From the NCBI GenBank assembly GCA_964648855.1, contig CAZYLT010000010.1, positions 60,001 through 92,000 of the forward strand: a stretch of DNA of 32,000 nucleotides, given 5' to 3'. Below the pieces are notes generated by a model, which had not been told where the DNA came from, did not search any database, and saw nothing but the letters and a program-made list of their open reading frames with translations. Positions within the stretch are counted from its first letter, which is position 1, and the number at the start of each line of letters is the position of its first letter. Shown here piece after piece: positions 465 through 27,213 of this stretch. Source of the DNA: an uncultured archaeon (GTDB taxonomy: Archaea; Asgardarchaeota; Thorarchaeia; Thorarchaeales; Thorarchaeaceae). Made by a program: the position numbers and the translations under genes.

Positions 465-2216
465 ATGACAATACAAAAAGACAATCTCGGAGAACACTAC
501 GGGAAGCTAGGTATTGGTAACCAGACCAATCTTGGAATTATGGGCAAAAACCGTGATATTAGCGTGGGAGAGATATTTCTAGTCTATTCTACAAGAGATG
601 ATCAGGAAAGAGTGTTCTTCTTTCGAGTTCTCGGGCTTGAGAATTACTTGAGACAGGTGGATGACTTAGCACGAGTTGCAGGCACACTCATGGTAGAAGG
701 CGATTCGTATCTTTCAGGAATTGAGAGAAATATGCTTCTCTCTGTAGAGGGAAAGATGCTTGGGTATGCTGAAGAAACAAAAGATGGATGGAAATTCCGG
801 GCGCCGCGAAGGTTGCCCGATCATCTGGCTGATGTTTACCGACCAGTCCCTGGTACATCTGACAAGGTGGTTAGAGAGATGCTTGAGAGCCAAACGGGCG
901 GCCACATGTATGTTGGAAATCTCCAAGTGGGAGAAGAAACACTCGATGTTCCTGCAAAAATTCCATCAAAATTCCTTCCAATGCATTTGGGAATCTTTGG
1001 GTCTACAGGTGCCGGCAAGAGCAACTTGATGATGGTTCTAATCAAATCTATAATTGACAATAACCTTCAGGTGAAACGAACCGGACAGGGTCAGACAATA
1101 TCTGCATTCTGCATTGACCCGCATGATGAGTTTGCTCAAGGTGTTGACGATTATGGGATCCAGCATATTGTAGAAGAGATGAGCCCAAGTACTCGTTCAG
1201 AGGTATTGGGAGATTTCTATTACTTAACAACCCATGCAGGCGCCACAATGAGGGAGATTAAAAGATATGCCCGACAAATTCGTATCTTATGGAGTGAGAT
1301 TAAGCCGCGTGATTTGTATTCTATAATGGACTTCACATCCCAAATGTATTCTTTTATTGATGCTCAGTATGCTCAACACCGCGAGAATTGGATTAGTGAA
1401 ATCTTACAGATGGATGAAGATCCTCATGGCCATCCTAAAGGGACGCTTCGAGCTGTTCAGCGACGTCTGAGTTTTGTTCAGAGGTCACCGATATTTATCG
1501 AGTCAGGCCAATCAATTCTCGGTGAGATATTCAAAGCCATGGAAACTGGTCGCATTCTTGTTGTCAATACCAGCCTTATGAGTGACATGGAGCAATTCCT
1601 TCTCACGACAATAGTGACTCGTACATTATCTGATATGCGGCGTGCGTTGAAGAGCAGCGGTAATCTTGGTGACTTTGATACTCAAGGAAAAAGCAGACTA
1701 CCATATCCGTTCTTCAAAGGAATCAAATCTGCAGCGAGGTCTTTCTACGGGAAGGATGGCAGTTCTGACAAGTCAAGCGTACGCGACCCCCGAAAGCTTC
1801 CAGTTATTCTCGTGACTGTAGAAGAGGCCCCCTCTATCTTGAATCCCGAATTAATGCGAGGTCGTTCCGTATTCAAGGATATCTCAAGGCAGGGTAGAAA
1901 GTTCAACATCGGCCTACTTGTTGTGAGCCAACAGGTCAGTGTCTTAGATAATGTCATCCTCTCCCAAATGAATACTGAAATAAACCTCCGGCTTGGAAAC
2001 GAACGCGAGATACAGGCATGCATAGATAATGCAAGTGTGAATATATCAGGATTTCAGAATGAGTTCAGAGTTATGGCTCGGGGAGAGGCATTACTAACAG
2101 CCTCATACAGAGAAATGCCGCTTCCAGTAAGGATACCACTATTTGATGACATCTTTAAGCGTGACAAGCATACCTACTCATCAGACACAGAGAAAGAAGA
2201 AAAACACATCCTATGA
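465..2216 (+). CDS. herA: HerA bipolar helicase/translocase (FtsK/HerA family), 583 aa
   Basis: N-terminal HAS-barrel-like region, Walker A GSTGAGKS, IDPHDEF, Walker B VTVEEA, arginine finger RQGRKF, SQQ motif; operon context. Confidence 0.92.
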   Translation: MTIQKDNLGEHYGKLGIGNQTNLGIMGKNRDISVGEIFLVYSTRDDQERVFFFRVLGLENYLRQVDDLARVAGTLMVEGDSYLSGIERNMLLSVEGKMLGYAEETKDGWKFRAPRRLPDHLADVYRPVPGTSDKVVREMLESQTGGHMYVGNLQVGEETLDVPAKIPSKFLPMHLGIFGSTGAGKSNLMMVLIKSIIDNNLQVKRTGQGQTISAFCIDPHDEFAQGVDDYGIQHIVEEMSPSTRSEVLGDFYYLTTHAGATMREIKRYARQIRILWSEIKPRDLYSIMDFTSQMYSFIDAQYAQHRENWISEILQMDEDPHGHPKGTLRAVQRRLSFVQRSPIFIESGQSILGEIFKAMETGRILVVNTSLMSDMEQFLLTTIVTRTLSDMRRALKSSGNLGDFDTQGKSRLPYPFFKGIKSAARSFYGKDGSSDKSSVRDPRKLPVILVTVEEAPSILNPELMRGRSVFKDISRQGRKFNIGLLVVSQQVSVLDNVILSQMNTEINLRLGNEREIQACIDNASVNISGFQNEFRVMARGEALLTASYREMPLPVRIPLFDDIFKRDKHTYSSDTEKEEKHIL

Positions 2217-2225
2217 GGAATATAG

Positions 2226-3536
2226 ATGACAGCTCGAATTGCTCACATCTCGGATACCCATCTTGGCACACGACCAGGTACAGGGGTACGGCAGAATGTA
2301 TGGGCAGTCGAGATGAGAACACGGCTTCTTGAGAATGACTTCTATGAACGGTTTGAAGAACTCTTTGAAAGAATCGGAGCACTTGAACCAAAGGTTGATC
2401 TTGTGGTTCACTCGGGGGACCTCTATAACTCTCCCTGGGAGGGCAATCCCACACAGCCACCTGTGGTTGCACAGGAGACCGCGATTAGAGTCCTGAAGGA
2501 CTTCACTGAGCGAACCGAAATTCCGGTGTTCATACTAGAAGGAAACCATGGTATATACCGAACGCTAGAGGTCTCCTTGCTTGATACTCTCAAAATGGCA
2601 GTCCCTCGATTGGAAATCGCAACACAACAGGAATTGAAACGCGCTATTGCGAAGGGCGAGCCGCTCGTTCGCGAGTACGAGAATTTGAATGTGTATTGTT
2701 TCCCGTATCTTGACAAGAGTGTTCTTGATTCGGCTGGACTGGTGGATGCTTTCATTGACTGGATTAGGACCTATCAAAAGCCGTCTTCCGATAAGGCTTC
2801 TATCGCTGTTGCACATGGCATGGAGCTAGACGAGAGTCTTTACTCTCCGATCTTTGACATGGGCTACGACTATATAGCGCTTGGACATGACCACCGACAA
2901 CATGCACACTCGAAGAATACGTGGTATGCCGGTTCCCCTGAACGCTGGAGATTCGACGAAATAAAGCATGAGAAGGGATTCATCGTAGTGGACATAGAAG
3001 AAGATAGTACTCTTGACATTACCCCTGAGCATTTTGATTTTGTTCGCCCTGTCTATAATGAAATGATGACAATTGATTCGGATGATACTGTCGCTACGAT
3101 GATTGAAAAGGTGCGCGCCTTTCTTGATGAGAAAGGTCTCAAATCGGAATGGGATATATCAACTGCTGGACGAGTCAGAATAGTGTTTGAGGGCTCCGCG
3201 AGTAGAGTCAAGCCAATGGACCTTACGATTGCATTGGAGAATTTTCGCCTTGAGGCATTTACCACAGGTTCAGAATACAACCTGGCGCAAATGGTATGGA
3301 CCATAAGACGTGACAAAGAAGAATTTACGGAAGCTGCTTATCCTGAGATAGAATCGGAGTATCTAATTGAAGACCCCGAACAAGACTTCAGGGAATATGT
3401 TGAAACTCTAGATATCGATGAACAATTCGACATCACCAAGCTCACCAAGGTTGCTGTCAAGGCCCTCAGAAAGGCTGTAAATCGGGATGAAGAAAAACTA
3501 GCCTTTGTGGACCTAGCGGAGGGTGGTGAGGAATGA
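2226..3536 (+). CDS. mre11: Mre11 nuclease, 436 aa
   Basis: Phosphoesterase motifs HISDTHLG, HSGDLY, GNH, AHG, ALGHDH, YAGSPE; ATGA overlap with rad50. Confidence 0.93.
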   Translation: MTARIAHISDTHLGTRPGTGVRQNVWAVEMRTRLLENDFYERFEELFERIGALEPKVDLVVHSGDLYNSPWEGNPTQPPVVAQETAIRVLKDFTERTEIPVFILEGNHGIYRTLEVSLLDTLKMAVPRLEIATQQELKRAIAKGEPLVREYENLNVYCFPYLDKSVLDSAGLVDAFIDWIRTYQKPSSDKASIAVAHGMELDESLYSPIFDMGYDYIALGHDHRQHAHSKNTWYAGSPERWRFDEIKHEKGFIVVDIEEDSTLDITPEHFDFVRPVYNEMMTIDSDDTVATMIEKVRAFLDEKGLKSEWDISTAGRVRIVFEGSASRVKPMDLTIALENFRLEAFTTGSEYNLAQMVWTIRRDKEEFTEAAYPEIESEYLIEDPEQDFREYVETLDIDEQFDITKLTKVAVKALRKAVNRDEEKLAFVDLAEGGEE

Positions 3537-5614
3537 AGATTCTGAGTATTGAACTCACTAATTTCAAGCCCTTTAGAGATGTTCGCCTCCCCTCCGATGG
3601 TCATCTCCCGGACGGTCTGATAATTATCAAGGGCCCAAACTCCACAGGAAAATCATCGATATTCGAGGCTGTTCTGTGGTGTCTATGGGGGTCAAATGCA
3701 GTTGAGCTGACGAATGAGGAATTGATCAGCTTTTCGTCCTCATTTTGCAAGGTTATTGTTGAGTTCGAAGTAGCAGGCCGTCAATACAAAATAGACCGCT
3801 CCTATGATCCAGCTAGTAGACTATCGGTTGTGTTCTACCAACAGACCGTTGATGGTTGGAAGCGAATTGCCGATGGCAGTAATTCAGTCGAGTCAAAACT
3901 TGAAGAAATCATCAACTTGGGACTACGGCAGGCATTAAACACGCTTCTTGTACGGCAAGGTGAAGTCGCGCTAATTGCGAACGCCACTGCATCGGTTCTT
4001 CGAGGTCTGTTGGTTGACGTGTACAATATTGAGATTCTGGGCGATATGTCTGGACACATATCGCATCTCGAAGATGACTTGAAGACTCGAATAGGGGTTT
4101 TGGAGAAAAAGTATGTTCGACCTGAAGTGATTGAAAAGCAAATTGAAGACATGGAAGAACGAATTGAAGAACATAGAAGCAATATCGAATCGAAGAAGGA
4201 TGAAATAGCAGGAACAGAGGACTTACTGAAGGATGTACCTCAACCTCACCTATTGGATGCAATTCAGGATATGTCTTCTAAATTAGAACGGAAGGAGGTC
4301 CAACTGAAGAGTGTACAGAAGACAAGAGACTCCTACCTGGAGGAAGCAGGTCTACTCACAGCAGAAGAAGAACTGGTACAAGCGCGTTTGGACACATTAT
4401 CCAAAAATGAGGAAGATGTGAAAGGCCGAATAGAGGAATTAGGCGAAGAGAAATCACAGATTGAGCGGGAGATAGGATCAATTAGAGGAACAGAGAGAGA
4501 CCTGCAAGAGAAAATCGAAACCCTTCAAGAAGCAAAGGACGTGACAATCTGTCCAACATGCTCAAAGCCTCTAACGGCAGAGGAGCGCGATGACATTCTA
4601 CAAGAATATCAGGACACTATCAAAGAAGGGACAGCGAGGATTAGCAAGCTTCAGGCGAAGAACAAGAAGGTCTCTGAAGAAGCTCAGAACCAAAAGAAGC
4701 GCCTGGGAGAAATCCAAAAAGCTCTCCAAGCCATTGGGCAAATAAAGAGACATCAGAATGACGTAGCTGATGCTGAAAACGAACTAGATGAAGCCCGAGA
4801 GGATTTGGAGAAAGCAATTGCAAAGCTGGGAGTAAAGGATCTTCAGACTCTTCTTGAGAAACATGGCGTAAAGAAACTAGGTGAACTGCAACGACTTGTT
4901 GAAGCTTGGATTAGTAAATTAGGGTCTCTGAAGAATGAGATTGAATCCATAAATAAGATGATTGAAGGCGAGAAAAGGCGCATAGCAGATGCCAAGAAGA
5001 AAATCGAAAAAATGGATGAGATTGGCTCAGAGATTGACGACCTAAGATCTCTACATGAGCATGCACAATATGTCCGACGAAAGCTAGTGAGTGGCTTCTT
5101 GGCAGACTACGTTATTCAGAAGCGTCTCATAGGAATAATTCGGGGTGCTACCAATCCCTACGTACGTGCGTTTACGAGTGGCCAATACTCTGGTGTTGAT
5201 TTGGTACCTACACCTGGTCGTGGTCGTGGTGGGGCTGGACTTGAGCTCAAAATCCAAGATGTTCGTGACAATGCCGTTAAGAAGACATCCCAACTCAGTT
5301 TTGGAGACCGTACGGCCATCAGCCTTGGGCTACGGCTAGGTATCAGCCGGACAATGAGCGCAATCCGTCCTCTCAAAGACAGCCCTGCATTGTCACCCCG
5401 AGTTAGATGCGTTCTGCTGGATGAGCCATTGGGGGGCTTGGATAGTGCACGGAGAAAATCAGTAGTTCAGAATCTAGTGAATGATCAATCATTCCGACAA
5501 ATCTTCCTCATCACACACACGGATGTCCAAGGATGGGAAGGAGTGCCTGTAGTCGATGTTTCAAAGACAGGTACAAGCAGTGAGGCAAACTTGGTTCAAT
5601 CATCGGATATGTAA
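3533..5614 (+). CDS. rad50: Rad50 ATPase, 693 aa
   Basis: Walker A GPNSTGKS, Q-loop VRQGE, coiled coils with central zinc hook CPTC, signature LSFGDR, Walker B LLDEP, H-loop ITH. Confidence 0.93.
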   Translation: MKILSIELTNFKPFRDVRLPSDGHLPDGLIIIKGPNSTGKSSIFEAVLWCLWGSNAVELTNEELISFSSSFCKVIVEFEVAGRQYKIDRSYDPASRLSVVFYQQTVDGWKRIADGSNSVESKLEEIINLGLRQALNTLLVRQGEVALIANATASVLRGLLVDVYNIEILGDMSGHISHLEDDLKTRIGVLEKKYVRPEVIEKQIEDMEERIEEHRSNIESKKDEIAGTEDLLKDVPQPHLLDAIQDMSSKLERKEVQLKSVQKTRDSYLEEAGLLTAEEELVQARLDTLSKNEEDVKGRIEELGEEKSQIEREIGSIRGTERDLQEKIETLQEAKDVTICPTCSKPLTAEERDDILQEYQDTIKEGTARISKLQAKNKKVSEEAQNQKKRLGEIQKALQAIGQIKRHQNDVADAENELDEAREDLEKAIAKLGVKDLQTLLEKHGVKKLGELQRLVEAWISKLGSLKNEIESINKMIEGEKRRIADAKKKIEKMDEIGSEIDDLRSLHEHAQYVRRKLVSGFLADYVIQKRLIGIIRGATNPYVRAFTSGQYSGVDLVPTPGRGRGGAGLELKIQDVRDNAVKKTSQLSFGDRTAISLGLRLGISRTMSAIRPLKDSPALSPRVRCVLLDEPLGGLDSARRKSVVQNLVNDQSFRQIFLITHTDVQGWEGVPVVDVSKTGTSSEANLVQSSDM

Positions 5615-5684
5615 GAAATCATCGTAAAAGGAAGTTTCATTGTCGAGGAAGCATTAATGAGCCACGATACAAGGACAATTTTCT

Positions 5685-7250
5685 ATGGAGCTCTCCCGGA
5701 TTAAGCGAAAAATTATCAGCTTACTTCGCAATTACCTACTTTTTATTGTTGTACTTGTAATTGGTTTCTACGTTTGGGGGAATGTTTTCTCGCTCGCCAT
5801 CAAAGACTATATGGAGTCTGCTCTTTGGAGAACCCGTGGAGTCTGGCTAGGCGAGGGGACCTTTGACTTATTTGGCCTTGAGATATATTACCAGTTTGAG
5901 GGCTACACCGATCACTCATTCTATTACATTCACTGGGGCCACAATATGCTTCGTGGAGTCATGCCCTATTGTGAAGAATTCGGTCACATCGTACTGGATG
6001 GATATGAGAACAATAATGGGCTCTATATCTTCCCCCCGCTCTACGCCTATCTATATGCTATCGGTGTGATTCTACCCATAGAGGGATGGGGCATTGGGTT
6101 GTTATTGGTTTCTTTTGGGTTCCTAACAGCATTCCCTGTTTTTGGTATTGCAAAGGAACTATCTGAGAATCACGTCATTGGAGCTGTTGCAGCTCTCACG
6201 TATTTACTTAATCCCAATATTCTGTATCATATCACATTTGCCTGGCTTAACCCAGCTCCTTTCATCTTCTTCTTCTTCTCTGGTTTCTATATGCTCATCA
6301 AAGGAAGAAGAGATGTTGGGACGGTACTGATAGTTGCGGCAGCCTTATTCAAGCAAACTGCATGGTTTTTGGGCATTCCATTAGTAGTGTATCTCCTTGT
6401 AAAACCCAAAACTCAGGGTCGAAATGCGACTGCATCTGGTGATGATTCTCCAGATTCAGACGGGGAACCAACCAACGCCCCTGACTCCGAATCGGAAACT
6501 AAGAAGAGTTCTTGGCAGTATCTAAATGATATATTGGATCTCCATGGATTTGCAAGAAGCTCCCTCTTGGTAATAGCTTTCGTGTTAGCTATAATGTTCC
6601 CCTTTTTGCTTGCTCAGCCAAATGTGCTGTCCCAAATGCTCCTTGGTGCTGGGGGCTTCTCCTTGGATTCATTTACTGAGGTCCCGGGATACTCTGCGCC
6701 AATGACGGTTCAAGTGCTCGCTGTTGTTGCGGAGATTCCATTTCTAGCTGAGATACTGAATTTCATTGTATATCCCGGCTTCTTGTTGTCCTTTGGTGTT
6801 ATTCTACTCATGGGAATAATGTTTCTAGAACCTCGACCTGAGGATGACAAACTGTATCTTCGCAGATTGCTTTTCTTGACATTACTGTTAATGCTCTTTG
6901 TTCATCTAGCAGGTCCTCGAGGCGTCTACAAGTATTACTTCACTCTCTTTGCACCCTTTTTCTCCATATTCTCCTCAGAAAAAATGGTCACAAGCGACAA
7001 GAATCGTGTGAATTTCTCTAGCTCTATGCTATGGCTGCCCATTGCTCTCTCCTTCTCAATACTTATTCCCCCGCGAGAAGTATATCTCTTCTCTGTTCTC
7101 CTTATCCTCATTGGATATCTTGCTGTGAGGCAAGTTGGGGCATTCTGGTCAGTGATTTCATATCTCTTCCGATATGCAATGGGAAAACTTAGGCCACTGC
7201 TTACTAGAATTAGACAAATAACAAATCAAAAAAGCCAGAATCTCAATTGA
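5685..7250 (+). CDS. Multi-pass membrane protein, GT-C (GT87/PIG-M-like) glycosyltransferase candidate
   Basis: About 11-12 hydrophobic segments. First extracytoplasmic loop has YTD...G..PY...YIFPPLY and a later FKQ motif, typical of GT-C mannosyltransferase-like families. Confidence 0.6.
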   Translation: MELSRIKRKIISLLRNYLLFIVVLVIGFYVWGNVFSLAIKDYMESALWRTRGVWLGEGTFDLFGLEIYYQFEGYTDHSFYYIHWGHNMLRGVMPYCEEFGHIVLDGYENNNGLYIFPPLYAYLYAIGVILPIEGWGIGLLLVSFGFLTAFPVFGIAKELSENHVIGAVAALTYLLNPNILYHITFAWLNPAPFIFFFFSGFYMLIKGRRDVGTVLIVAAALFKQTAWFLGIPLVVYLLVKPKTQGRNATASGDDSPDSDGEPTNAPDSESETKKSSWQYLNDILDLHGFARSSLLVIAFVLAIMFPFLLAQPNVLSQMLLGAGGFSLDSFTEVPGYSAPMTVQVLAVVAEIPFLAEILNFIVYPGFLLSFGVILLMGIMFLEPRPEDDKLYLRRLLFLTLLLMLFVHLAGPRGVYKYYFTLFAPFFSIFSSEKMVTSDKNRVNFSSSMLWLPIALSFSILIPPREVYLFSVLLILIGYLAVRQVGAFWSVISYLFRYAMGKLRPLLTRIRQITNQKSQNLN

Positions 7251-7269: not shown

Positions 7270-8442
7270 CTATTTTGCCATGCCCTTAAGCTCTTCCTTC
7301 TTTTTTGAAACTCTCTTTTCTAGCGACTTGATTTTTTCAGCTAGTTTTTCTGCTTGTTCTTCGTAGGCGTCTCTAGGCATTGCCCCCGATGAATGTCGCT
7401 CTTCAATATGATCTTGGAGTTGCTTGACAGACTTTAGTTCTGCATTCAATGACTTGATGTCTGCTTCTAGGTCAGCCACCTTGTTTTCGTCTTCGGTCTT
7501 GAACTGTTTCGCGGGGATAATCACACCAAGCTGATCTTGTGTCTTCTCTGCAAAATCTTGAAACTGATTTCTGAGTGCATCTATGTTCTTCTCTACTCGC
7601 TCTACCTTTTCTGTGGCAGTTTCAATATCTTTCTGCAAGTCGAACACTGCATTTACTAGTCTTCGTAGTGTATTCTCAAATTCTTCTGACACGACACCAC
7701 TCCCTGATTCTCTCATGCTCTTTTGTGTTGAATCGTTCCTAGTCTTGTCTTCAGCCCTTAGAGGCGTGGACTGCATTCTATTGAGCCAAGAGAATGCATT
7801 AAGTGCAAAATTCTTGTTATCTTCTTTCTTGAAGCCGCCGCCTCTTCTGAAGACCTCATAGCTGCTAATACAAATCACTCTCCCCTTTCCATGCTCCGCA
7901 ACAGCGATAACAGGTTTGCTGGGTGGGTCTGCGGTTCCTCCAGTCTTTGCCAAGACCTCTGCGTTGCTCTCCACTTCGAGTGTGCAACCAGATGGTAGCA
8001 AAATTTCATTAATTCCTTCCATGATAGGATGGTCTTCTAAATCCCTAATAATAGGCATAGTAGGTAGTCCATCGTTGTGTTTCTTATCTTTGATTGCAGT
8101 ATTGTCGAAAGTTATTCCGAAGGATTTGGATATATCGCTCATGTTATTCATGAGACCTCGATCCCCGCCCGAGTGGGAGAGGAGCATAAGACCGCCTCCG
8201 TCTTCAACGAACTCCATTAGTGCTGTTATCTCTGCCTTTCTTAGCTTGGAGCTGTTCGGACAGCCAAACACCATTATTGCTGCTGACTTGATTTCCTTTG
8301 GAAGAAGCATAAAATCTGTGTAGGCCTCAACATCATAGTCGTTATCTCGGAGTAATTGGCGTAGTTCTGAGTATGTTGTATCAAGCCTACCCCTTTCATT
8401 TTGAGTCTGGTCGAAGTAAATGAGCATTCTACGTCCGCTCAA
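7270..8442 (-). CDS. GIFT (IFT52/GldG-like, DUF4350-type) domain protein with C-terminal coiled coil
   Basis: IYFDQTQNE...EITALMEFVEDGGGLMLL...GITF...GKGRVICI...DNKNFALNAFSWL pattern, then a heptad-rich C-terminus. Start set at the TTG following a GGTGA RBS; GTG at 8451 is the alternative. Confidence 0.7.
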   Translation of the reverse strand: MSGRRMLIYFDQTQNERGRLDTTYSELRQLLRDNDYDVEAYTDFMLLPKEIKSAAIMVFGCPNSSKLRKAEITALMEFVEDGGGLMLLSHSGGDRGLMNNMSDISKSFGITFDNTAIKDKKHNDGLPTMPIIRDLEDHPIMEGINEILLPSGCTLEVESNAEVLAKTGGTADPPSKPVIAVAEHGKGRVICISSYEVFRRGGGFKKEDNKNFALNAFSWLNRMQSTPLRAEDKTRNDSTQKSMRESGSGVVSEEFENTLRRLVNAVFDLQKDIETATEKVERVEKNIDALRNQFQDFAEKTQDQLGVIIPAKQFKTEDENKVADLEADIKSLNAELKSVKQLQDHIEERHSSGAMPRDAYEEQAEKLAEKIKSLEKRVSKKKEELKGMAK

Positions 8443-8573
8443 TAATCTCACCTTGCTATGCCGAGTTATGAGAGAACTCCAGATTTCAACTAATGAGGCT
8501 TCCTTGGATGGCCTTTTCTACGATTATATCTCTTCCAGGTCCAAAAGACCTAACTATGTAATACGCTCCTCGA

Positions 8574-9567: not shown

Positions 9568-12500
9568 GTGCCTCAGTTGAATCGCGAACATGATGATGAA
9601 AGCAACCAGTCTTCATTAGAGGACTTCATGTCAGTCCAAACTGAGTCAGAAAAAACGGGAGAAACAGAATCAAAACCTGCGTCTGAGGGCAAAAAGATAG
9701 CAAGAGAGAACAAAACAGAGAAAATAGCCCCTTCTCGCGAAACTTCAGCGATAATAATCAATCCAGAAAGCATGACTTTCGAAGAAGATGAAATGATTCC
9801 AAATGATTACATTGCCGGACTGAGAGAAGAACCGGAGAATTTGGACCCCTCATATCTTTTGTCTGTAGATTATGATGGTTCTCAAAAGAAGGCTATAGCT
9901 CGGCTTTACAACCCGGAAACAGAGAAGGTATACTTCTGGCATGACAACACCGGTCATCTCCCTTATTGCTTTACTGACCTTCCTCCACAAACAGCTGAGA
10001 AGAAAGTCAGAAATCATCGTGGGTTTGTTTCATTAGAATCTGAAACAGTACAGGATCTTCTGCGAGATGAATCTCGAGAGATGACCAAGATTTACGCCAC
10101 TGATCCATTGAGCATTGGAGGAACTGCTGGTGCAATTCGTGAGCTCTTGACTACCTCCTCTGGTCCAATAGGCGAAACCATAAGTCATGCGTGGGAAGCA
10201 AATATCCGTTACCATAACAACTTCTGCTATGACCGTGAACTTGTATGTGGAATGCCATATAAAATAGAAAATAGTGACCTTGTTCCCTGTCCTCCCAAAC
10301 TTGACCAAGCAACCTTAAACGAATTCAAGAAAACAATTGGTGATGCTGAGTACTTCGGAGAGATAATAGACAAGTATGCACCGATGTTCTTCACAGAAGT
10401 TCCCGACATAAAACGAATTGCAGTTGACATCGAAGTCTATTCAGAGAAGGCCAATAGAATCCCGGATGCCAATCGGGCACCGCAGCCAGTCACAGCTGTA
10501 GGTCTATCAGATAATCTGGGAATGAACAAGTGTTTTGTTCTAAGACGGACTGATTTAGAAGAAGGCGAAAAGCACGAAGAATTTCCGGAAGAGCTGAATA
10601 TTGTCTTTTACGAGGATGAGCGAGAAATGCTCATGCAAACATTCCGAATGCTGGACAAATATCCAATCGTCTTGACATTCGTCGGGGATGCCTTCGACCT
10701 CACCTATCTCTATAATCGTGGAGAACGTCTGGGCATTGATGTGGACAAGCACTGCCCAATACGATTGGGTAGGGATATTGCATTACTCGACGGGGGGATT
10801 CACATCGACCTCTATAGGTTCCTCAAGAACCCCTCAGTCCGACTCTATGCCCTATCAGGTGCCTATGAACGAAACAATCTCGAATCCATCGGACGAGGCC
10901 TTCTTAATGTTGGTAAACTTGAGTTAAGTGATGAGATTTCTAGGCTTGGATACTACGAACTAGCTCATTATTGCTGGCTAGACTCCAGTATTACTCTGAG
11001 AATCACACAATACAATGAAAACCTCTTATTGCGCCTTATTGTTCTTCTCATGCGAATCTCCCGGTTACCAATGGAGGATGTGACTCGCTTTGGAATATCA
11101 ACATGGATACAATCTCTTTTCCGGCAGGAACACCGTTCACGAAATGCGTTGATTCCAAAACAGCGTGAGATTCGAGAACTGAAATCGAGTGATGCTCATA
11201 CTGAGGCGATGATAAAGGACAAGGCATTCAAAGGCGCAATTGTTATTGAGCCCGTGGCAGGGGTCCATTTTGGTGCTACTGTTCTTGACTTTGCTAGTCT
11301 GTATCCCACAATCATGAAAACACACAACATTAGCTACGAAACGGTGGATTGTCCCCACGAGTCCTGTAAGAACGCGGAAGACAATCGGGTGCCTGAAACA
11401 AATCATTGGACCTGTAAAGAGAACGTGGGTATGATTAGCCAGACCATCGGCTTCTTTCGAGACACACGAGTCAAATGGTTCAAGGGAAAAAGCAAGGACA
11501 CAAGTCTGGATCAAGGAATACGAAACTGGTATTCTGTTGTCGAGAAGGCACTAAAGGTATTCGTCAATGCGTGCCTTCCTTTTGACGAAGAAGTAGTGGT
11601 ACGGGATTCCCGCGGTCTTGTATTTAAGAGAGCCATCGGCAGTTTGGAGGATGAATGGTGCGATCTTGAGATTCTAAGCATTGATAACGACTGGGAATCT
11701 TCCTCCTTTGGAACGCCAGTATTCGTTCCAATTGTCGGATTTCGGAAGAATGGAAAAGCACCAATTCTCGACATCTCCCTTCGGGACGGACGAACTATTC
11801 GATGCACAGGTAACCATGTCTTGCCGAAGCTTCTTCCCAAACATACACGAAAGAACCGAAAGGCAATTGCCCAGAAGCCACTCGCGATCGAGTATGTTGC
11901 CGCTGAAGACCTCCAGATAGATGATGATCTCCTGATGTTGGAGCAGACTCCACTCTCATCAAGTCCTCCTGAAACATTGTTTATTCCGGACCTTGTCCCT
12001 CAGGAGTCAATACATGTGGGAGTACGAAGAGAAGACTATGTGAAGTTCTCGTATCGACGTTCCCAACGAACAGAGAACCCTCTGATAGCTGTAATAAACG
12101 AAGAATTCAGATATTCAAAGGCGAGCAGATGGTATCGCGCACGATGGAAAGACCTGTCCACTAAAGCTAAGAATATGATTAGAGAACATGGTTCAGATGC
12201 ACCAACTTTCTATCTCAAATTGATTGAAAGAAGTGGAAAATGGCGTGAGGCTGGTAAATGGGAAAGCATCAGAATTGAGCTTGATGAAGATTTCTTGGCA
12301 TTGATGGGCTGGTATCTATCTGAAGGACATGTAGGCGTCAATCGGGTATCTATTTCACAGTATCAAGAAATCAATCCCGTTAATTTCCAACAAATCGGGG
12401 CATTATTACAACGGATGGAACTGCCCTTTGCAGTATATTCGGAGAGGGAGCATGTCATCCACTCGAAAATACTTGCAGCAGTCATGGAATCCCTCTGCGG

Positions 12501-13707
12501 TAGCGGATCCAACAACAAATCTATTCCTCTTCATCTACTTAATGAAGAAAGAGCACGCATAGTTCTAAAATCGTTCTTCAAGGGTGATGGGAATATCACC
12601 AATCATGGCGCTATGCGATATTCGACATCGAGCAAACAACTAGCTTATGATATTCTATACCTGTTGGGGGCAGTTGGGAAACATGCATCTGCCCATCGCG
12701 GCGAATCAATGTATCGTATTGTGGAAAGCAAAGGGCTAAAGTACCGGCGAACGGGCCGAGGATTGATTGATTTCAATGGTACACATGCAGTAAGGATTCG
12801 TTCGATACACAAAAGTTCGCATTCAGAACCGACTTACGACTTGGAAACAGGGAACGGATTGTTTGTATCGACGAACGGAATTGTGGTACATAATAGCTAC
12901 GGTGTCACAGGAGCCCAACACTTCGAGCTCTTCTGTATGCCTGCCGCCGAGAGTGTAACTGCCTATGGTAGAGATGCAATCATTCGGACCAAAGAGAAGG
13001 CTGAGTCCATGGGTGTACGAGTATTATACGGGGATACTGACTCTGTTTTCCTTGATAGTCCAACAGAAGATCAACAACAAGAGCTCATTGAATGGTCTCG
13101 AAAGGAACTGGAAATAGACCTAGAAGTTGAGAAGACATACAAGTATGTTGCTCTCTCAGACCGCAAAAAGAACTACATCGGAGTCTATGATTCAGGTTAC
13201 GTTGAGGTAAAGGGGCTCAGTGGTAAGAAGCGAAACACGCCGGAATTCATTCAGGAAGCATTTCGAGAGATGCTAGAAGTCTTAGCTCATGTGGACAGCC
13301 CTGAAGGATTTGAAATGGCAAAAGAGGAAATCCGCGAAATCGTAAACCGTGTCATTGATAGGCTTGAGGGAAAAGCGGAGCCCTATTCCCCAGAGGAACT
13401 CGCTTTTCGTATTCAAATGACAAAACCAATCTCACAGTACGGTAGTACCCTCCCACAACATGTGAGAGCGGCCATGATGATGGAAGAAGCTGGACACGAA
13501 GTTGAAGGCGGAACCATCATTGAATATGTTAAGACAAAGGATGCAGATGGCGTTTTACCTGTTGTGCTTGCGAGAGAGGGAGAATACTGGTTGGATAAAG
13601 AGAAGTACATAGATACATTGAGATCGGTTTTTGAGCAGGTTCTGGAATCAGTGGGAATTGATTTTGATAGCCTCTTGGGAATCACAACATTGGATGATTT
13701 CTTCTAA
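9568..13707 (+). CDS. polB: Family B DNA polymerase (PolB1-like) precursor containing one intein; about 938 aa after splicing
   Basis: YLLSVDYDG..KAIARLY..DNTGHLPY N-terminus resembles crenarchaeal PolB1. ExoI DIE, ExoII FD, ExoIII YCWLD, motif A DFASLYP, motif B KVFVNA|SYG, motif C YGDTDS, KKNY. Confidence 0.95.
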   Translation: MPQLNREHDDESNQSSLEDFMSVQTESEKTGETESKPASEGKKIARENKTEKIAPSRETSAIIINPESMTFEEDEMIPNDYIAGLREEPENLDPSYLLSVDYDGSQKKAIARLYNPETEKVYFWHDNTGHLPYCFTDLPPQTAEKKVRNHRGFVSLESETVQDLLRDESREMTKIYATDPLSIGGTAGAIRELLTTSSGPIGETISHAWEANIRYHNNFCYDRELVCGMPYKIENSDLVPCPPKLDQATLNEFKKTIGDAEYFGEIIDKYAPMFFTEVPDIKRIAVDIEVYSEKANRIPDANRAPQPVTAVGLSDNLGMNKCFVLRRTDLEEGEKHEEFPEELNIVFYEDEREMLMQTFRMLDKYPIVLTFVGDAFDLTYLYNRGERLGIDVDKHCPIRLGRDIALLDGGIHIDLYRFLKNPSVRLYALSGAYERNNLESIGRGLLNVGKLELSDEISRLGYYELAHYCWLDSSITLRITQYNENLLLRLIVLLMRISRLPMEDVTRFGISTWIQSLFRQEHRSRNALIPKQREIRELKSSDAHTEAMIKDKAFKGAIVIEPVAGVHFGATVLDFASLYPTIMKTHNISYETVDCPHESCKNAEDNRVPETNHWTCKENVGMISQTIGFFRDTRVKWFKGKSKDTSLDQGIRNWYSVVEKALKVFVNACLPFDEEVVVRDSRGLVFKRAIGSLEDEWCDLEILSIDNDWESSSFGTPVFVPIVGFRKNGKAPILDISLRDGRTIRCTGNHVLPKLLPKHTRKNRKAIAQKPLAIEYVAAEDLQIDDDLLMLEQTPLSSSPPETLFIPDLVPQESIHVGVRREDYVKFSYRRSQRTENPLIAVINEEFRYSKASRWYRARWKDLSTKAKNMIREHGSDAPTFYLKLIERSGKWREAGKWESIRIELDEDFLALMGWYLSEGHVGVNRVSISQYQEINPVNFQQIGALLQRMELPFAVYSEREHVIHSKILAAVMESLCGSGSNNKSIPLHLLNEERARIVLKSFFKGDGNITNHGAMRYSTSSKQLAYDILYLLGAVGKHASAHRGESMYRIVESKGLKYRRTGRGLIDFNGTHAVRIRSIHKSSHSEPTYDLETGNGLFVSTNGIVVHNSYGVTGAQHFELFCMPAAESVTAYGRDAIIRTKEKAESMGVRVLYGDTDSVFLDSPTEDQQQELIEWSRKELEIDLEVEKTYKYVALSDRKKNYIGVYDSGYVEVKGLSGKKRNTPEFIQEAFREMLEVLAHVDSPEGFEMAKEEIREIVNRVIDRLEGKAEPYSPEELAFRIQMTKPISQYGSTLPQHVRAAMMMEEAGHEVEGGTIIEYVKTKDADGVLPVVLAREGEYWLDKEKYIDTLRSVFEQVLESVGIDFDSLLGITTLDDFF
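11572..12894 (+). mobile_element. Intein (441 aa) with LAGLIDADG homing endonuclease in polB
   Basis: Starts CLPFDEEV (Cys1), block B TGNH, DOD motifs LMGWYLSEG and LKSFFKGDG, block F TYDLE, ends GIVVHN followed by Ser+1. Removing it restores KVFVNASYG. Confidence 0.95.
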
Positions 13708-22077: not shown

Positions 22078-22881
22078 ATGCATGACCATATTCACCAGGA
22101 GCTTTACGCTTCAATAGCTACCTTAGATCAACTCAAGAAGATGTATGACCTTGGTGCGGTTGATATCAGGTCATTCCAGCGGGAATCTGATGCTCTCGTA
22201 AACGAAGTAAAAGGTCATTTGGATGAGATGAGGCGCATGGGTATTGATGTTGGGGGATTCATGGCAGAACAAAGAATCTTAGACGAGTTTCCAGATGCAG
22301 CAGGATTAATCGAATTCTACCAACACAGGTCCAGACCGGCATTAGATGGATACACAATGGATGAATATTACGATCATCTGGGGTTGGCTGTTCTAGATGT
22401 TGCTACTACACACTCTGCGAAAGGCTTGTTGGGTCTAGCGGACCTGATAGTTGAGGTTGTCAACCGTGTGCCGCAGTTCAAGTCAGTCAGCTATAATGAT
22501 GTCATAGAGGCGGTCAATAGGGTCGCAGAAAACGGACTGATTCCAGGGATACGAACTCTACGTGGTGGTGTGAAAGTTGTAGAGCTTCGTCCACTAGAGC
22601 TACGCGGCGACCAATCGGATGTGGTTAATCTTGCAGCTACGAAGGGATATACCTCTGTGGAAGAGGTCATGATGGAGCTCAAATGGTCTGAGGACCACGC
22701 TCGTCAAGTGCTATCAAGTCTAGTTGATGCGGGAATGGCTGTTGCCGATATTCGGTTCAGTACCGGCGGTAGATACTATTTCCCTGGGTTGCATCACAAG
22801 TCCTCAGATAAGGCAAATGGTCATGAAATGCTAGATAGAAGAAGAGATGGCCGAGACTCTCCCCCAGCTCATGGCTTGTAA
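22078..22881 (+). CDS. ESCRT-II Vps22/Vps36 (EAP30)-like tandem winged-helix protein with N-terminal Vps28-like helical domain
   Basis: DEYYDHLGLAVLDV...DVIEAV...PLELRGDQSDVVNLA..KGY...LKW..A..VL..LV..G matches the Vps22/Snf8 pattern; N-terminus ELYASIATLDQLKKMY resembles Vps28. Confidence 0.85.
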   Translation: MHDHIHQELYASIATLDQLKKMYDLGAVDIRSFQRESDALVNEVKGHLDEMRRMGIDVGGFMAEQRILDEFPDAAGLIEFYQHRSRPALDGYTMDEYYDHLGLAVLDVATTHSAKGLLGLADLIVEVVNRVPQFKSVSYNDVIEAVNRVAENGLIPGIRTLRGGVKVVELRPLELRGDQSDVVNLAATKGYTSVEEVMMELKWSEDHARQVLSSLVDAGMAVADIRFSTGGRYYFPGLHHKSSDKANGHEMLDRRRDGRDSPPAHGL

Positions 22882-22895
22882 TTCTATATTCATGC

Positions 22896-23609
22896 CTAAG
22901 AAATACGAATTTTTATTGCCGCCCTTTTCTTGTCTACCCATTCAGCGAGTTCTTGTTCCACTAGAATCCCTAGGACTGTTTTGATTTCATCTTCAGGGAG
23001 ACCTGCAAAATCTTGGTTACTTTCTTGGATTACGAGCGTCTTGACATCCAACCTAGTCTTACCTGTTTCAATAGCCCATGCATAAACGATATCCGCCCAG
23101 TCTTGTATGGGTCTCCAGTAGATCCGAAGCTGTCCATTGTTTTTTCCAATCCATTCAGCAACGTCCTTTTCAACCAGCTTTTCGGCTATGAACCTGAAGG
23201 CCTTGACTTTTCCAAATATGTCGCAAAAGGGCGGTTCAGTAATGAAGGTTGCAAGTGATATTTTGTGTGCCGTATTCCTCTGTGCCCACTCCAAGAGGAA
23301 ATCCCCCCATTCATCTGCCCAGAGATTTCGGTCATCTTCTTCGATAGGGATATGGTACATCAATTCATACTCTTTGACGCTGCCCCATGATGGCAAGAAA
23401 ATCTCGGGTTCAGCTGATACTTCCTCGACAACCTGAGTTTTGAATTCGTCTTTGATGGTCGTTATGTCTTCTTTCTCGTCGATACTGTCCACTTCAATGG
23501 CTTCGACTTCTTGCTCTTCAATTTCATCTGTTCTTGATTCAACTGTTTCTTCTTCTGAACGATCTTTTTCTTTACTCTTCTTCTCTTTTTTGCGCTCTCT
23601 GACTCCCAC
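22896..23609 (-). CDS. vps25: ESCRT-II Vps25-like protein with charged N-terminal extension
   Basis: W.DFLLEWA, AEWI.....LRIYWRPIQDWADIVYAWA..TG, F.GL.E......L..L.....AE, as in Vps25. Confidence 0.88.
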   Translation of the reverse strand: MGVRERKKEKKSKEKDRSEEETVESRTDEIEEQEVEAIEVDSIDEKEDITTIKDEFKTQVVEEVSAEPEIFLPSWGSVKEYELMYHIPIEEDDRNLWADEWGDFLLEWAQRNTAHKISLATFITEPPFCDIFGKVKAFRFIAEKLVEKDVAEWIGKNNGQLRIYWRPIQDWADIVYAWAIETGKTRLDVKTLVIQESNQDFAGLPEDEIKTVLGILVEQELAEWVDKKRAAIKIRIS

Positions 23610-23612
23610 GAA

Positions 23613-24836
23613 CTATGAACCCTCCGCCCATTCTTTGTATCTACGAATGTCTTCAGGCGATGTTGCCGGGCGAATATTTTCAATCGCATTGAGAAAGTCC
23701 AATCTTGACACTGGTCTTAATCTGAAGCCAGCTTTCTCTGTAGGAGGTATATCGCTCTGCAATTCTCTGATAGGTTCCATCGCGGCTTCTCTACATACAA
23801 CGCTGATATCTCTCCCGCTGTATCCCTCTGTCAGGTCAGCAAGCTCATTGAAGTCCACATCTGGTCCGACTTCAATATCATCAATATGTATTTTGAAAAT
23901 CCTGACTCTTGCGGCTTTATTGGGGAGGGGAACATTGATCCTTTTCTCAAATCGGGATCGTAAGGCGAAATCGATGTCCCATGGTAGATTTGTGGCCCCA
24001 ATGAGTGTAACTCTTTCATCACTCTTACTTGTTAGTCCTTGAAGTTCCGTCAACAATTGGGTCTTGAGTCTTCTTTCGCCACCAACATCTTCTCCGCGCC
24101 TTGAAACCCCTATAGAATCAAGCTCATCTATGAATATGATAGATGGCTGGTTGTCGCGCGCAGAATCGAAGAGGTGTTTAACCAATCGCTCTGATTCACC
24201 AAGCCATTTACTCACTATATTTGCTGCTGATACATTGAAGAAGGTGGCATTTACTTCGTTTGCAACCGCCTTGGCAATTAAGGTCTTTCCACAGCCTGCT
24301 GGTCCATAGAGTAGAATGCCTTTCCAAGGCTGCCTAGCCTTGCCTTTGAACAACTCGGGGTGCTTCATGGGTGATATGATGGCATCATGTATAGCCTGTT
24401 TTGCATCATTGAGTCCTGCAACTTCTGACATCTTGACATCAGGGCGCTCGGAGAGGATTGTATCAGAAATCATCTCGTTGAGCCTTATCTCATCCTCATC
24501 TTCCTCTTCAGGCGGGCTACTTGCTGGTTTCTCATGTCTTATACTATCATCATGGATTGGTTCAGGCGGCCTGGCGAGACCCTTTTCTTGTCCCCTAGCT
24601 TTTTTCTTGATGCCCGAAAGATAACGAACCCTATCTACACACTCTTGAGCCCGTTTGAGGTAATGCTTTCGGACTGAAGGGAGACTCGTTGCATTTGAGA
24701 GTTTGATCAATATCTTACTGGCTTTGAGGTATTTTTGACAGGCCTCCTTCTTCAGTCCTCTCTGGTCCAGATCGATAGCTCTGTCGAGGAGTTCTCGTAA
24801 GCCTTTATCGAGTCTAGTTCCATTGGTATCGCTCAT
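23613..24836 (-). CDS. vps4: Vps4 AAA ATPase (MIT + AAA)
   Basis: N-terminal MIT helices, acidic linker, VAGL..AK, PWKGILLYGPAGCGKT, pore loop SKWLGESE, FIDELD, GATN.PW.ID, GYSGRDI. Confidence 0.93.
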   Translation of the reverse strand: MSDTNGTRLDKGLRELLDRAIDLDQRGLKKEACQKYLKASKILIKLSNATSLPSVRKHYLKRAQECVDRVRYLSGIKKKARGQEKGLARPPEPIHDDSIRHEKPASSPPEEEDEDEIRLNEMISDTILSERPDVKMSEVAGLNDAKQAIHDAIISPMKHPELFKGKARQPWKGILLYGPAGCGKTLIAKAVANEVNATFFNVSAANIVSKWLGESERLVKHLFDSARDNQPSIIFIDELDSIGVSRRGEDVGGERRLKTQLLTELQGLTSKSDERVTLIGATNLPWDIDFALRSRFEKRINVPLPNKAARVRIFKIHIDDIEVGPDVDFNELADLTEGYSGRDISVVCREAAMEPIRELQSDIPPTEKAGFRLRPVSRLDFLNAIENIRPATSPEDIRRYKEWAEGS

Positions 24837-25028: not shown

Positions 25029-25652
25029 GTGAGCAAATTGGGTATCTTCAAGAAAGCCTTCTCGTGGGGACGAAAGAAGCCTGATATCAATGAAGTTACA
25101 AGTCAGCTTCGCGTTCTATCAAAACAACTTGAAAGACAGAGAAACAAGTTGGAAAAAGAAGAACGAGATACAAAGGCAAGAGCCATCAACGCACGAAAGA
25201 ACGGAAACACGGAAGCCTTTCGGACCTATGCAAAGGAAATGGTGAGATTCAGACGTTTTGCTCTCTCAATTGATAAGTCGCGTCTTCAGATTTTGAAGAT
25301 ACTGGCTCATATAACTCGAGCACAAACCACCGCAAAAGCATCCAAGGCCCTTGACGATGTAGCTGATATTTTGGGTCTTCTTGGAGATGCCACGGACACC
25401 TCGAAAGTAATCGAAAATGCAGATGAAATAGCCATGCGGCTGGAAGAGTTCGAGATTGAGAGCGGAATTGCAGGTGAAGCTTTCGACTCCACAACTGAAT
25501 CTGAGGTGACTTCAGATGAATTGAGTGAAGCCATGAGAGAAATAGAGGCTGCCGCCCAAGTAGAGGGTTCTACTACAGGGGCGCATCCGATGACTGAAGC
25601 AGAGGAATTGGAAGAAGCCATCAAGTCATTAGAGAAAGAACTTGGTGTTTGA
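25029..25652 (+). CDS. ESCRT-III (Snf7 domain), Vps2/24/46 (CHMP1-3)-like
   Basis: Amphipathic N-terminus LGIFKKAFSW, LERQ..KLEKEE...K.....ARK.GN.E..R.YAKE.VR, basic N-half and acidic C-half, MIM1-like C-terminal ELEEAIKSL. Confidence 0.9.
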   Translation: MSKLGIFKKAFSWGRKKPDINEVTSQLRVLSKQLERQRNKLEKEERDTKARAINARKNGNTEAFRTYAKEMVRFRRFALSIDKSRLQILKILAHITRAQTTAKASKALDDVADILGLLGDATDTSKVIENADEIAMRLEEFEIESGIAGEAFDSTTESEVTSDELSEAMREIEAAAQVEGSTTGAHPMTEAEELEEAIKSLEKELGV

Positions 25653-25653
25653 A

Positions 25654-27213
25654 TCACCATCGACGATATTCATGGGTGTCGCCATACTGGTCGAGTTCCT
25701 TTCTAATACCATACGAGTCCCGCATCAAACCTCTGTATCTTCTTATGAAGTCTTCAGGTACAATTCTTCCACTGCGGAGTAGGTCTACCGTTTCAGAGAG
25801 AGCGGATTGCAGTTCGCGTTCATTTCTCCTTAATTGCTCGAAACCCATATCGTATCCTTGATTCCTTCGTCTGCTATCTCGATGCCCAAGTGTTCTTCTG
25901 AGCTCCTCAGCCAATTCATCTTCGTATTTCTGCTTCTTTTGGTATCTACTTTGTGGGCTCCAAGGACGGTTCACCTCATCCCGGTATGGCACATAATATC
26001 CTCTCTTTGTTTCGGGAACTTGACTCACCTGATCAGTTGACAGAATCGAGTAGATCAGCTCCTCAATCTTCAATCTCACATCGCTGACATTAACACTGGT
26101 CGCCTCGATCTTTCGTACCCGGTGCATGTCGTCCTGCACGTACCTATCAAACTTCTTTGCGATCTGTATGTAATCTGAGAGGACCTGTTCCGTTTGTTCG
26201 TCACAATCAACTCGAACATCACCCTGCTTTAACTTCAAAACCAATCGTTTTCTGAACCTTCCATCCTCTTCAAGAGATTTGAGATAGGCCAAGGGGAAGT
26301 CGAAGACGACCTCTGTCTTTTTGCGTACTAGTCCAGTTTCTGCAACGAATATGAGACGCTTGTTCGTAATATACAAGATCCCTGTGGTCTTATCATGCTT
26401 CAAGAAGTCGCTCCCACTGAGTTTTATCTCGGGAATTGCACATACAGGAAGCTCGTTTACCGACAGGTCTGAATACTCGTAGAATCCCGCGAAATGCTTC
26501 CTATAGTAGTCAAGACCTTCTAGATGCTCTGTTAGTTCACCCAAATCTAATTCTAGTGCTTGGAGTGAATCGTCAATATTGCTCTTGTATTGTCGTCCGA
26601 TATGAGTTACGCGATTGGTCACGCCCTCAACAAATGGGAATTGACCTGTTTCCCATGTTTGGTAATCAATGAGTCCTTTTGTTTCTGCGAGCATTTTCTT
26701 GGCTACTATCTCGGCTTGGTTTGTAACGCGATTCTTGATAGCTATGAACTCATCTTGAATCTGTTCAACCCTATCTTCGAACCACTTGAAGCCAAGAAAA
26801 TTTGCCATTCTTAATGAAACAAGAATCCTTTTCGCGGAGGCGAGCCTAGTATTGAACTCTCTGAGTTTGGTGTGGCCGTAGTGAATACTCATGACTGCAT
26901 TACGCAGTTCGTGAGCTAGGTTTCTGCGTTTATCTTCAATTCCCGCAATCCGAGTTGAATAGCAATTTGGACATATCTCTTCAATACGTTTTGCAGTAAC
27001 AAAACTCTGTGATTCACACTCAGGACAATTTTCCGGTTGCTCGCCCATTGGAACCCTCCCAATATTATGATGGCACTCTGCGCACATTGTGTATTCGCTT
27101 GATTTTGAATCAAGGCAATTTGTGCATAGCAAAGCGCCACAGTCCTCGCACATATGCGTTGAGCGATTATCGCCACAAAGGCTGCAATAATTCGATGGTG
27201 AACCTTTTGTCAA
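25654..27213 (-). CDS. Zn-finger / coiled-coil / PH(GRAM/GLUE-like) / steadiness-box-like protein, candidate ESCRT-I subunit or adaptor
   Basis: Six CxxC pairs in the first 84 aa, heptad region, GILYITNKRLIF...DFPL..L PH-like strands, C-terminal DLLRSGRIVPEDFIRRYR.L hairpin. GGAGG RBS before TTG 27213. Confidence 0.75.
   Translation of the reverse strand: MTKGSPSNYCSLCGDNRSTHMCEDCGALLCTNCLDSKSSEYTMCAECHHNIGRVPMGEQPENCPECESQSFVTAKRIEEICPNCYSTRIAGIEDKRRNLAHELRNAVMSIHYGHTKLREFNTRLASAKRILVSLRMANFLGFKWFEDRVEQIQDEFIAIKNRVTNQAEIVAKKMLAETKGLIDYQTWETGQFPFVEGVTNRVTHIGRQYKSNIDDSLQALELDLGELTEHLEGLDYYRKHFAGFYEYSDLSVNELPVCAIPEIKLSGSDFLKHDKTTGILYITNKRLIFVAETGLVRKKTEVVFDFPLAYLKSLEEDGRFRKRLVLKLKQGDVRVDCDEQTEQVLSDYIQIAKKFDRYVQDDMHRVRKIEATSVNVSDVRLKIEELIYSILSTDQVSQVPETKRGYYVPYRDEVNRPWSPQSRYQKKQKYEDELAEELRRTLGHRDSRRRNQGYDMGFEQLRRNERELQSALSETVDLLRSGRIVPEDFIRRYRGLMRDSYGIRKELDQYGDTHEYRRW

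Follow-up and report, generated by a model that had tools for sequence, protein, structure and literature searches.

How ESCRT assembly starts in an Asgard lineage devoid of ubiquitin is the question raised by the locus described here. Thorarchaeota lack ubiquitin (Hatano et al. 2022), and in the 94.6%-complete genome under study none of Pfam Vps28, Vps23_core, UEV and ubiquitin was detected above the curated cut-offs. Asgard ESCRT proteins give the best view of the origin of the eukaryotic sorting machinery. For gene P0001, a sequence-only reading had proposed the role of an ESCRT-I adaptor, in the place of Vps23/Vps37 but with a PH domain and zinc fingers instead of a UEV domain. The gene lies within the window, i.e., the whole 32,000-nucleotide stretch of DNA analysed, next to the following ESCRT genes.

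22078-22881, (+) strand: P0227, 267 aa, Vps28-N-like hairpin plus Vps22/EAP30 winged-helix core (EAP30, E 3.9e-13)
22896-23609, (-) strand: Vps25-like subunit of ESCRT-II, extended at its N-terminus by an acidic stretch
23613-24836, (-) strand: Vps4 with MIT, AAA and Vps4_C domains (Pfam, NCBIfam)
25029-25652, (+) strand: ESCRT-III (Snf7, E 4.3e-10), convergent with P0001
25654-27213, (-) strand: the whole P0001 gene, a Znr_CC_PH_SB protein (see below) of 519 aa with TTG start and stop codon at 25654-25656

Only a single base separates the last base of the ESCRT-III gene from the stop codon of P0001 (window 25652-25656), and the two genes share a 4-base overlap in a relative with 31% identity (L001:9524-9527). 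A convergent Snf7 gene was found beside or near P0001 homologues of just 23-31% identity. For the homologue on L003, the convergent neighbour is a 225-aa protein with no Pfam match, which may be a divergent ESCRT-III. Within Thorarchaeota, the order ArgRS, PmbA, TldD, P0001, ESCRT-III, Vps4, Vps25, Vps22, AspRS is repeated on two other contigs, one of which carries an extra, unassigned 376-aa gene between Vps22 and AspRS. The ESCRT context of P0001 is conserved both in these contigs and in the neighbourhoods of distant homologues. In the Vps25-like protein of the window, residues 1-90 are highly acidic and Lys/Glu-rich, match no family and look disordered; the N-termini of some Asgard Vps25 proteins have been likened to steadiness boxes (Makarova et al. 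2024, PMC10936438).

The sole start codon located 5' of the cysteine at position 10 of P0001 is TTG. Since this cysteine is invariant in the homologues and TTG alone lies upstream, the long 519-aa form is real. The three nearest database entries are annotated as proteins of 464-477 aa, 42-55 residues shorter than P0001, and full-length orthologues were also found by database search. When the whole protein was compared with Pfam and NCBIfam, only sub-threshold matches were obtained. We then modelled P0001 by AlphaFold2, using as input an alignment of 59 homologues with 17-57% identity (alignment A1). The model (mean pLDDT 87.8, pTM 0.69) consists, from the N-terminus, of a zinc module, a three-helix bundle, a PH domain of GRAM/GLUE type, a disordered linker and a C-terminal helical hairpin. 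Every feature listed by the sequence-only reading for 25654-27213 was recovered, where that reading had placed it, in the ORF, its translation and the model.

26962-27186, (-) strand: zinc module, residues 10-84, six CxxC pairs with 12 invariant Cys
26476-26940, (-) strand: three long helices (the 'CC' part), residues 92-136, 144-178 and 189-246, an intramolecular bundle in the AlphaFold2 model with pLDDT >90
26155-26448, (-) strand: residues 256-353, GRAM/GLUE-subgroup PH domain made up of seven strands and a C-terminal helix
25852-26028, (-) strand: disordered linker, residues 396-454, pLDDT 39-69, containing YYVPY and PWSP
25660-25851, (-) strand: Vps23-type steadiness box hairpin, residues 455-518, as assigned from the AlphaFold2 model and family profiles

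In the model, residues 1-91 form a beta-rich zinc module, in which the cysteines follow the pattern C10xxC13-x6-H20-x-C22xxC25-x4-C30xxC33-x10-C44xxC47-x15-C63xxC66-x14-C81xxC84. The CxxC pairs and the position at 26962-27186 thus agree with those noted from the letters, but the first spacing is x6 and not x5. Among 52 homologues with 21-55% identity, all 12 cysteines (12/12) are invariant and His20 shows no conservation, indicating that the zinc ligands are Cys only. The 12 Cys would be enough for three Zn sites, and the module may be a nested cross-brace instead of three separate ribbons.

The identity of this fold was examined by profile and structure searches. On P0001 itself, Pfam zf-B_box gave 18.8 bits, below its cut-off of 24.1 bits, and DZR (double zinc ribbon) and Prok-RING_4 were also sub-threshold. 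Family-wide, zf-B_box was matched by 30 of the 59 members (best E 1.9e-5, still sub-threshold) and an ANCHR-like B-box by 15. The module folded alone with pLDDT 83.7. With this structure no Foldseek match below E 1e-3 was obtained, the weak matches including an MCM zinc ribbon. By VIA, the best folds were RING, U-box, B-box and ZZ domains, among them the BIRC7 RING (Z 5.3), the B-box of COL2 (Z 4.5) and that of KAP1 (Z 4.2), all with Z <= 5.3, a range that VIA describes as possibly just a common arrangement. The zinc module therefore bears a weak likeness to RING/B-box/ZZ cross-brace folds. The proposed 'TRIM-like' or B-box N-terminus is best taken as such a likeness and not as membership, given the sub-threshold Pfam scores, the low Z values and the lack of conservation of H20.

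The long helical region predicted from the letters was borne out by the modelled helices at 92-246; residues 95-232 of this bundle superpose on the designed helical bundle 5j0l_A with Z 9.9 (VIA). It is followed by a PH sandwich of seven strands at residues 256-336, which contains GILYITNKRLIF, and a capping helix at 339-353. By VIA, residues 243-359 were superposed on the PH-GRAM domain of MTMR2 (Z 12.8, rmsd 2.6 A, 107 aligned), the PH-like domain of Lam6 (Z 12.1, rmsd 2.8 A, 108 aligned) and the GLUE domain of EAP45 in its complex with ubiquitin, 2dx5_A (Z 10.4, rmsd 3.5 A, 97 aligned). The identity of 19% for the EAP45 GLUE match is the top value in the VIA list. Foldseek likewise detected the PH domain of yeast Vps36 (2cay_A, E 6.7e-4). 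Among the 59 members, Pfam bPH_3 was matched by 30, GRAM by 10 and Vps36 GLUE (Vps36_ESCRT-II) by 6. The PH/GRAM-like strands that had been read from the DNA at about 26150-26460 are thus structurally confirmed, with VIA Z of 10-13 and the Foldseek match to Vps36. To our knowledge, phosphoinositide-type PH ligands are not established in archaea. When the whole model was submitted to Foldseek, most of the entries returned were DH-PH RhoGEF proteins. With TM of about 0.2 and rmsd of about 20 A, these entries are read as 'helical bundle plus PH', and DH homology of P0001 was rejected.

Two more helices lie within residues 363-395, and the disordered linker starts at 396. The Pro/Tyr motifs YYVPY and PWSP, to which attention had been drawn, are indeed present in the linker. 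This segment is, however, poorly conserved among orthologues, a loosely recurring Trp being the sole exception to the lack of motifs. As YYVPY and PWSP are not conserved in the orthologues, they are not counted as a feature in their own right.

The C-terminal hairpin, composed of helices 455-481 and 486-518 in the model, spans the segment 25693-25842 that had been likened to the TSG101/Vps23 steadiness box and the Vps37 Mod_r hairpin. The last 90 residues of P0001 gave no Pfam match even at E<=10. The claim is thus not borne out by the query alone, but it gains support at the level of the family. Among the C-termini of 26 Thorarchaeota orthologues, 10 matched Vps23_core (best 9.8e-5) and four matched Mod_r (best E 0.0082), and no other Pfam family was matched by more than 7. 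With full-length members, Vps23_core was matched by 13 of 59 (best 7.2e-6). When the C-terminal family profile was compared with PDB, chains of the yeast Vps23 ESCRT-I core ranked 2, 3 and 5, with E values of 0.06-0.2 that taken alone are below significance. The profile alignment pairs GRIVPEDFIRRYRxLMRDSY with GTIPLDTFVKQGRELARQQF, and spans the conserved G-x-I-x-x-x-x-F motif and the second helix. The C-terminal end of Loki-type relatives carries the same sort of motif. By VIA, the hairpin superposes on residues 322-385 of Vps23 in 2p22_A with Z 9.8 and rmsd 1.2, and on the CdvA filament of S. islandicus, 9s9g_A, with Z 10.2 and rmsd 0.9 over 67 aligned residues; Z values of about 10, on a par with Vps23, were also obtained for an OST1 domain and for the coiled coil of a serine integrase. 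Since Vps23, CdvA and unrelated hairpins superpose equally, structure alone is undiscriminating. Judged by the profiles, the hairpin is confirmed at the family level as a Vps23-type steadiness box.

All ORFs of the genome were also searched with an HMM of the steadiness box. One further match (E 7.8e-5) was found, to one of two short paralogues encoded on contig C24 (L006:2645-2968(+), 107 aa, and L006:3636-3866(+), 76 aa), which have in common the motif KKAGxIGxEEFxxxY...LEFxxYNLRLG. The pair was rejected as ESCRT parts, its KKAGxIGxEEF motif being SHOCT-like and the adjoining genes forming a zinc ABC transporter cluster of ZnuA/NikR-like/ZnuC/ZnuB type.

What would the steadiness box of P0001 bind? 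Since no Vps28, UEV or ubiquitin was detected at the Pfam level in the genome, the Vps28-like hairpin on Vps22 is the obvious partner. Residues 1-64 of P0227 carry the near-invariant motif ELYASIATLDQLKKMYDLG, for which a weak alignment to Pfam VPS28 (its positions 3-61, E 0.11) was obtained. A complex of P0227 residues 1-95 with P0001 residues 453-519 was modelled with a score of 0.74 (runs 0.74, 0.75 and 0.72), the best control reaching 0.02; this score was attained by 58 of 80 solved complexes and by 2 of 110 mismatched pairs, and, as the headpiece of yeast Vps23-Vps28 has already been solved, it may reflect likeness rather than binding. Agreement of contacts across runs was 100%, and the pLDDT of the partners was at least 79. 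The modelled interface joins P0227 residues 3-40 with P0001 residues 476-505, and involves the conserved motifs of both hairpins. The model supports a predicted pairing of the steadiness box with the Vps28-like hairpin that is fused to Vps22. The eukaryotic ESCRT-I headpiece consists of three hairpins, whereas no third was identified for P0001 and P0227.

P0001 is a Thorarchaeota member of a published Asgard family, Znr_PH_CC_SB or Znr_CC_PH_SB (asCOG cog.011556), described by Makarova et al. (2024, mBio 15:e00335-24, PMC10936438), and the family is not new. According to these authors, the family has no eukaryotic members, probably dates back to the Asgard ancestor, and is a likely ESCRT-I component, for which membrane association is expected via PH (PMC10936438). 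The same study describes Asgard Vps22 (cog.002769) as fused to a steadiness box (PMC10936438), and cog.011556 is placed among steadiness/Vps23-box asCOGs (bioRxiv 10.1101/2023.07.25.550441). P0001 has the six CxxC pairs, the long helices followed by PH, and the C-terminal steadiness box of this family, with which it has in common the domain order, the phylum, the ESCRT neighbourhood and the proposed ESCRT-I role. As both the architecture and the ESCRT-I inference are contained in Makarova et al. 2024, the sequence-only reading was correct in substance and already in print.

A word-index search with P0001 gave 166 relatives, of which the named ones are almost all Thorarchaeota. By exhaustive search, 100 cluster representatives were obtained, 500-830-aa forms among them; the named ones belong to Promethearchaeota, Asgardarchaeia and one Asgard-group MAG. 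Homology extends to proteins of 646-669 aa (E 1e-16 to 1e-24), three of them named as Promethearchaeota or Sigynarchaeum. Relatives of 500-830 aa found with the P0001 profile are similar in size to the 650-aa Lokiarchaeum GC14_75 member, As_004-p_01543 (PMC10936438 table); the Thorarchaeota proteins are shorter (about 520 aa) because their linker is shorter. The phylum was sampled with 301 genomes, of which 284 contain a match at E<=1e-5, as do 88 of 90 high-quality ones, the matches of several families being weak (1e-6 to 1e-9) and maybe covering only part of the protein.

Compared with eukaryotic ESCRT proteins, P0001 combines features of two different subunits. Like Vps23/TSG101, it ends in a steadiness-box hairpin with a matching motif and a predicted packing on a hairpin of Vps28-N type. 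Unlike Vps23/TSG101, it lacks UEV (no Pfam match, the N-terminus being the zinc module), its hairpin is preceded by a disordered linker and not by a stalk helix running directly in, and it carries zinc and PH domains, both absent from Vps23. Its PH domain belongs, like that of Vps36/EAP45, to the GRAM/GLUE subgroup, and zinc fingers accompany it within one protein, as in yeast Vps36. The zinc fingers of P0001 are, however, N-terminal and not NZF inserts inside PH, and the two C-terminal winged-helix domains of Vps36/EAP45 are missing (no EAP30 match, and none in the model).

The PH domain, the steadiness box and the ESCRT context all support the proposed adaptor role, in which P0001 would be Vps23-like but equipped with PH and zinc fingers and devoid of UEV. 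We consider with moderate confidence that P0001, as the Thorarchaeota orthologue of Znr_CC_PH_SB, most likely serves as an ESCRT-I-like adaptor at the upstream end of an ESCRT pathway that is compact and independent of ubiquitin. In the mechanism that we propose, the GRAM/GLUE-type PH domain, possibly together with the zinc module, would bind membrane or cargo, and the flexible linker of about 60 residues would bear the Vps23-type steadiness-box hairpin. This hairpin would pack on the Vps28-N-like hairpin fused to Vps22, and the packing would tie the adaptor directly to ESCRT-II (Vps22/Vps25). ESCRT-II would then recruit ESCRT-III and Vps4, which are encoded next door. A more far-reaching version, which we regard as doubtful, takes the 12-Cys module as a RING/B-box-type cross-brace recognising cargo or an unknown modifier instead of ubiquitin through UEV, and P0001 together with the Vps28-N/Vps22 fusion as a merged ESCRT-I/II complex. 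If true, sorting would proceed along a ubiquitin-independent route, which might be ancestral and older than the link between ubiquitin and ESCRT.

In the chief alternative, P0001 would be a CdvA-like membrane anchor that brings in the neighbouring ESCRT-III by direct contact, in the way that CdvB is recruited by CdvA in TACK archaea. It would serve division or vesicle release, the ESCRT-II bridge not being obligatory. We judge this alternative unlikely, although several observations point in its direction. The hairpin superposes on CdvA as well as on Vps23, homology between the steadiness box and CdvA hairpins has been proposed (PMC10936438), and, of the gene links conserved in distant lineages, the closest is that to ESCRT-III and not that to Vps22. 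CdvA and P0001 are thus alike in a homologous-looking hairpin, in a gene adjoining ESCRT-III and Vps4, and in a likely role as membrane-proximal recruiter. On the other hand, the PRC barrel of CdvA is missing from P0001 (no PRC match), which has PH and zinc domains instead, and no CdvB-binding C-terminal peptide was identified. Pfam CdvA was matched by 3 of the 59 members, but Vps23_core by 13, and the hairpin was confidently modelled on the Vps28-like hairpin of Vps22.

The zinc module gives rise to two further explanations. That P0001 is an E3 ligase of TRIM type or a protein that handles modifiers, its cross-brace module and coiled coil acting on a ubiquitin-like modifier, appears very unlikely. 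The sub-threshold matches to zf-B_box (30/59), ANCHR-like B-box (15/59) and Prok-RING_4 and the ranking of RING, U-box, B-box and ZZ as best folds would agree with such an activity, but the fold matches are weak, the B-box histidines are not conserved, and Pfam detected no ubiquitin in the genome. One cluster of E2-like, E1-like and JAB genes is present elsewhere in the genome, but on a different contig and with no ESCRT genes adjoining. Least probable of all, and in our judgement hardly credible, is a zinc-finger protein that has nothing to do with ESCRT, for instance one binding nucleic acid, and is encoded beside the ESCRT genes by chance. Zinc ribbons are common among nucleic-acid-binding proteins, and the weak Foldseek similarity to the MCM zinc ribbon could be taken in this sense; against it, lineages whose homologues have 23-31% identity retain the ESCRT-III neighbourhood, sequence profiles are the source of the steadiness-box signal, and the PH domain is of GLUE/GRAM type.

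P0001 does not extend the published catalogue. Znr_CC_PH_SB, near-universal in the phylum sample, joins in one protein the parts that eukaryotes split between ESCRT-I (steadiness box) and ESCRT-II (GLUE-type PH and zinc fingers). The predicted hairpin contact bears on how ESCRT assembly would start in an Asgard lineage without ubiquitin. The additions made here are small: the invariance of the 12 Cys, the convergent ESCRT-III link in distant homologues, the lack of conservation of the linker motifs, and a partner for the steadiness box at the level of a model.

Several other observations were made in the genome and in the window. On contig C42 (L005:1306-3173(+)), three co-directional genes encode an E2-like protein of 146 aa (UQ_con, E 3.2e-5, below cut-off), a Rossmann-fold ThiF/E1-like protein of 287 aa, and a JAMM/MPN protein with the HSHx7SxxD motif; the cluster resembles bacterial-type E2/E1/JAB conjugation or defence systems. 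Within the window, an operon at 465-7250(+) encodes HerA (DUF87), Mre11 (Metallophos) and Rad50 (zinc hook), and the 521-aa ORF that comes next, with no Pfam match, occupies the usual position of NurA. A 393-aa protein encoded at 7270-8451(-) matches the GIFT domain of IFT52 (E 1.1e-16), followed by a coiled-coil tail. Finally, the 1379-aa family-B DNA polymerase at 9568-13707(+) contains an intein, whose homing-endonuclease domain is of LAGLIDADG type (Pfam Intein_splicing, LAGLIDADG_3).
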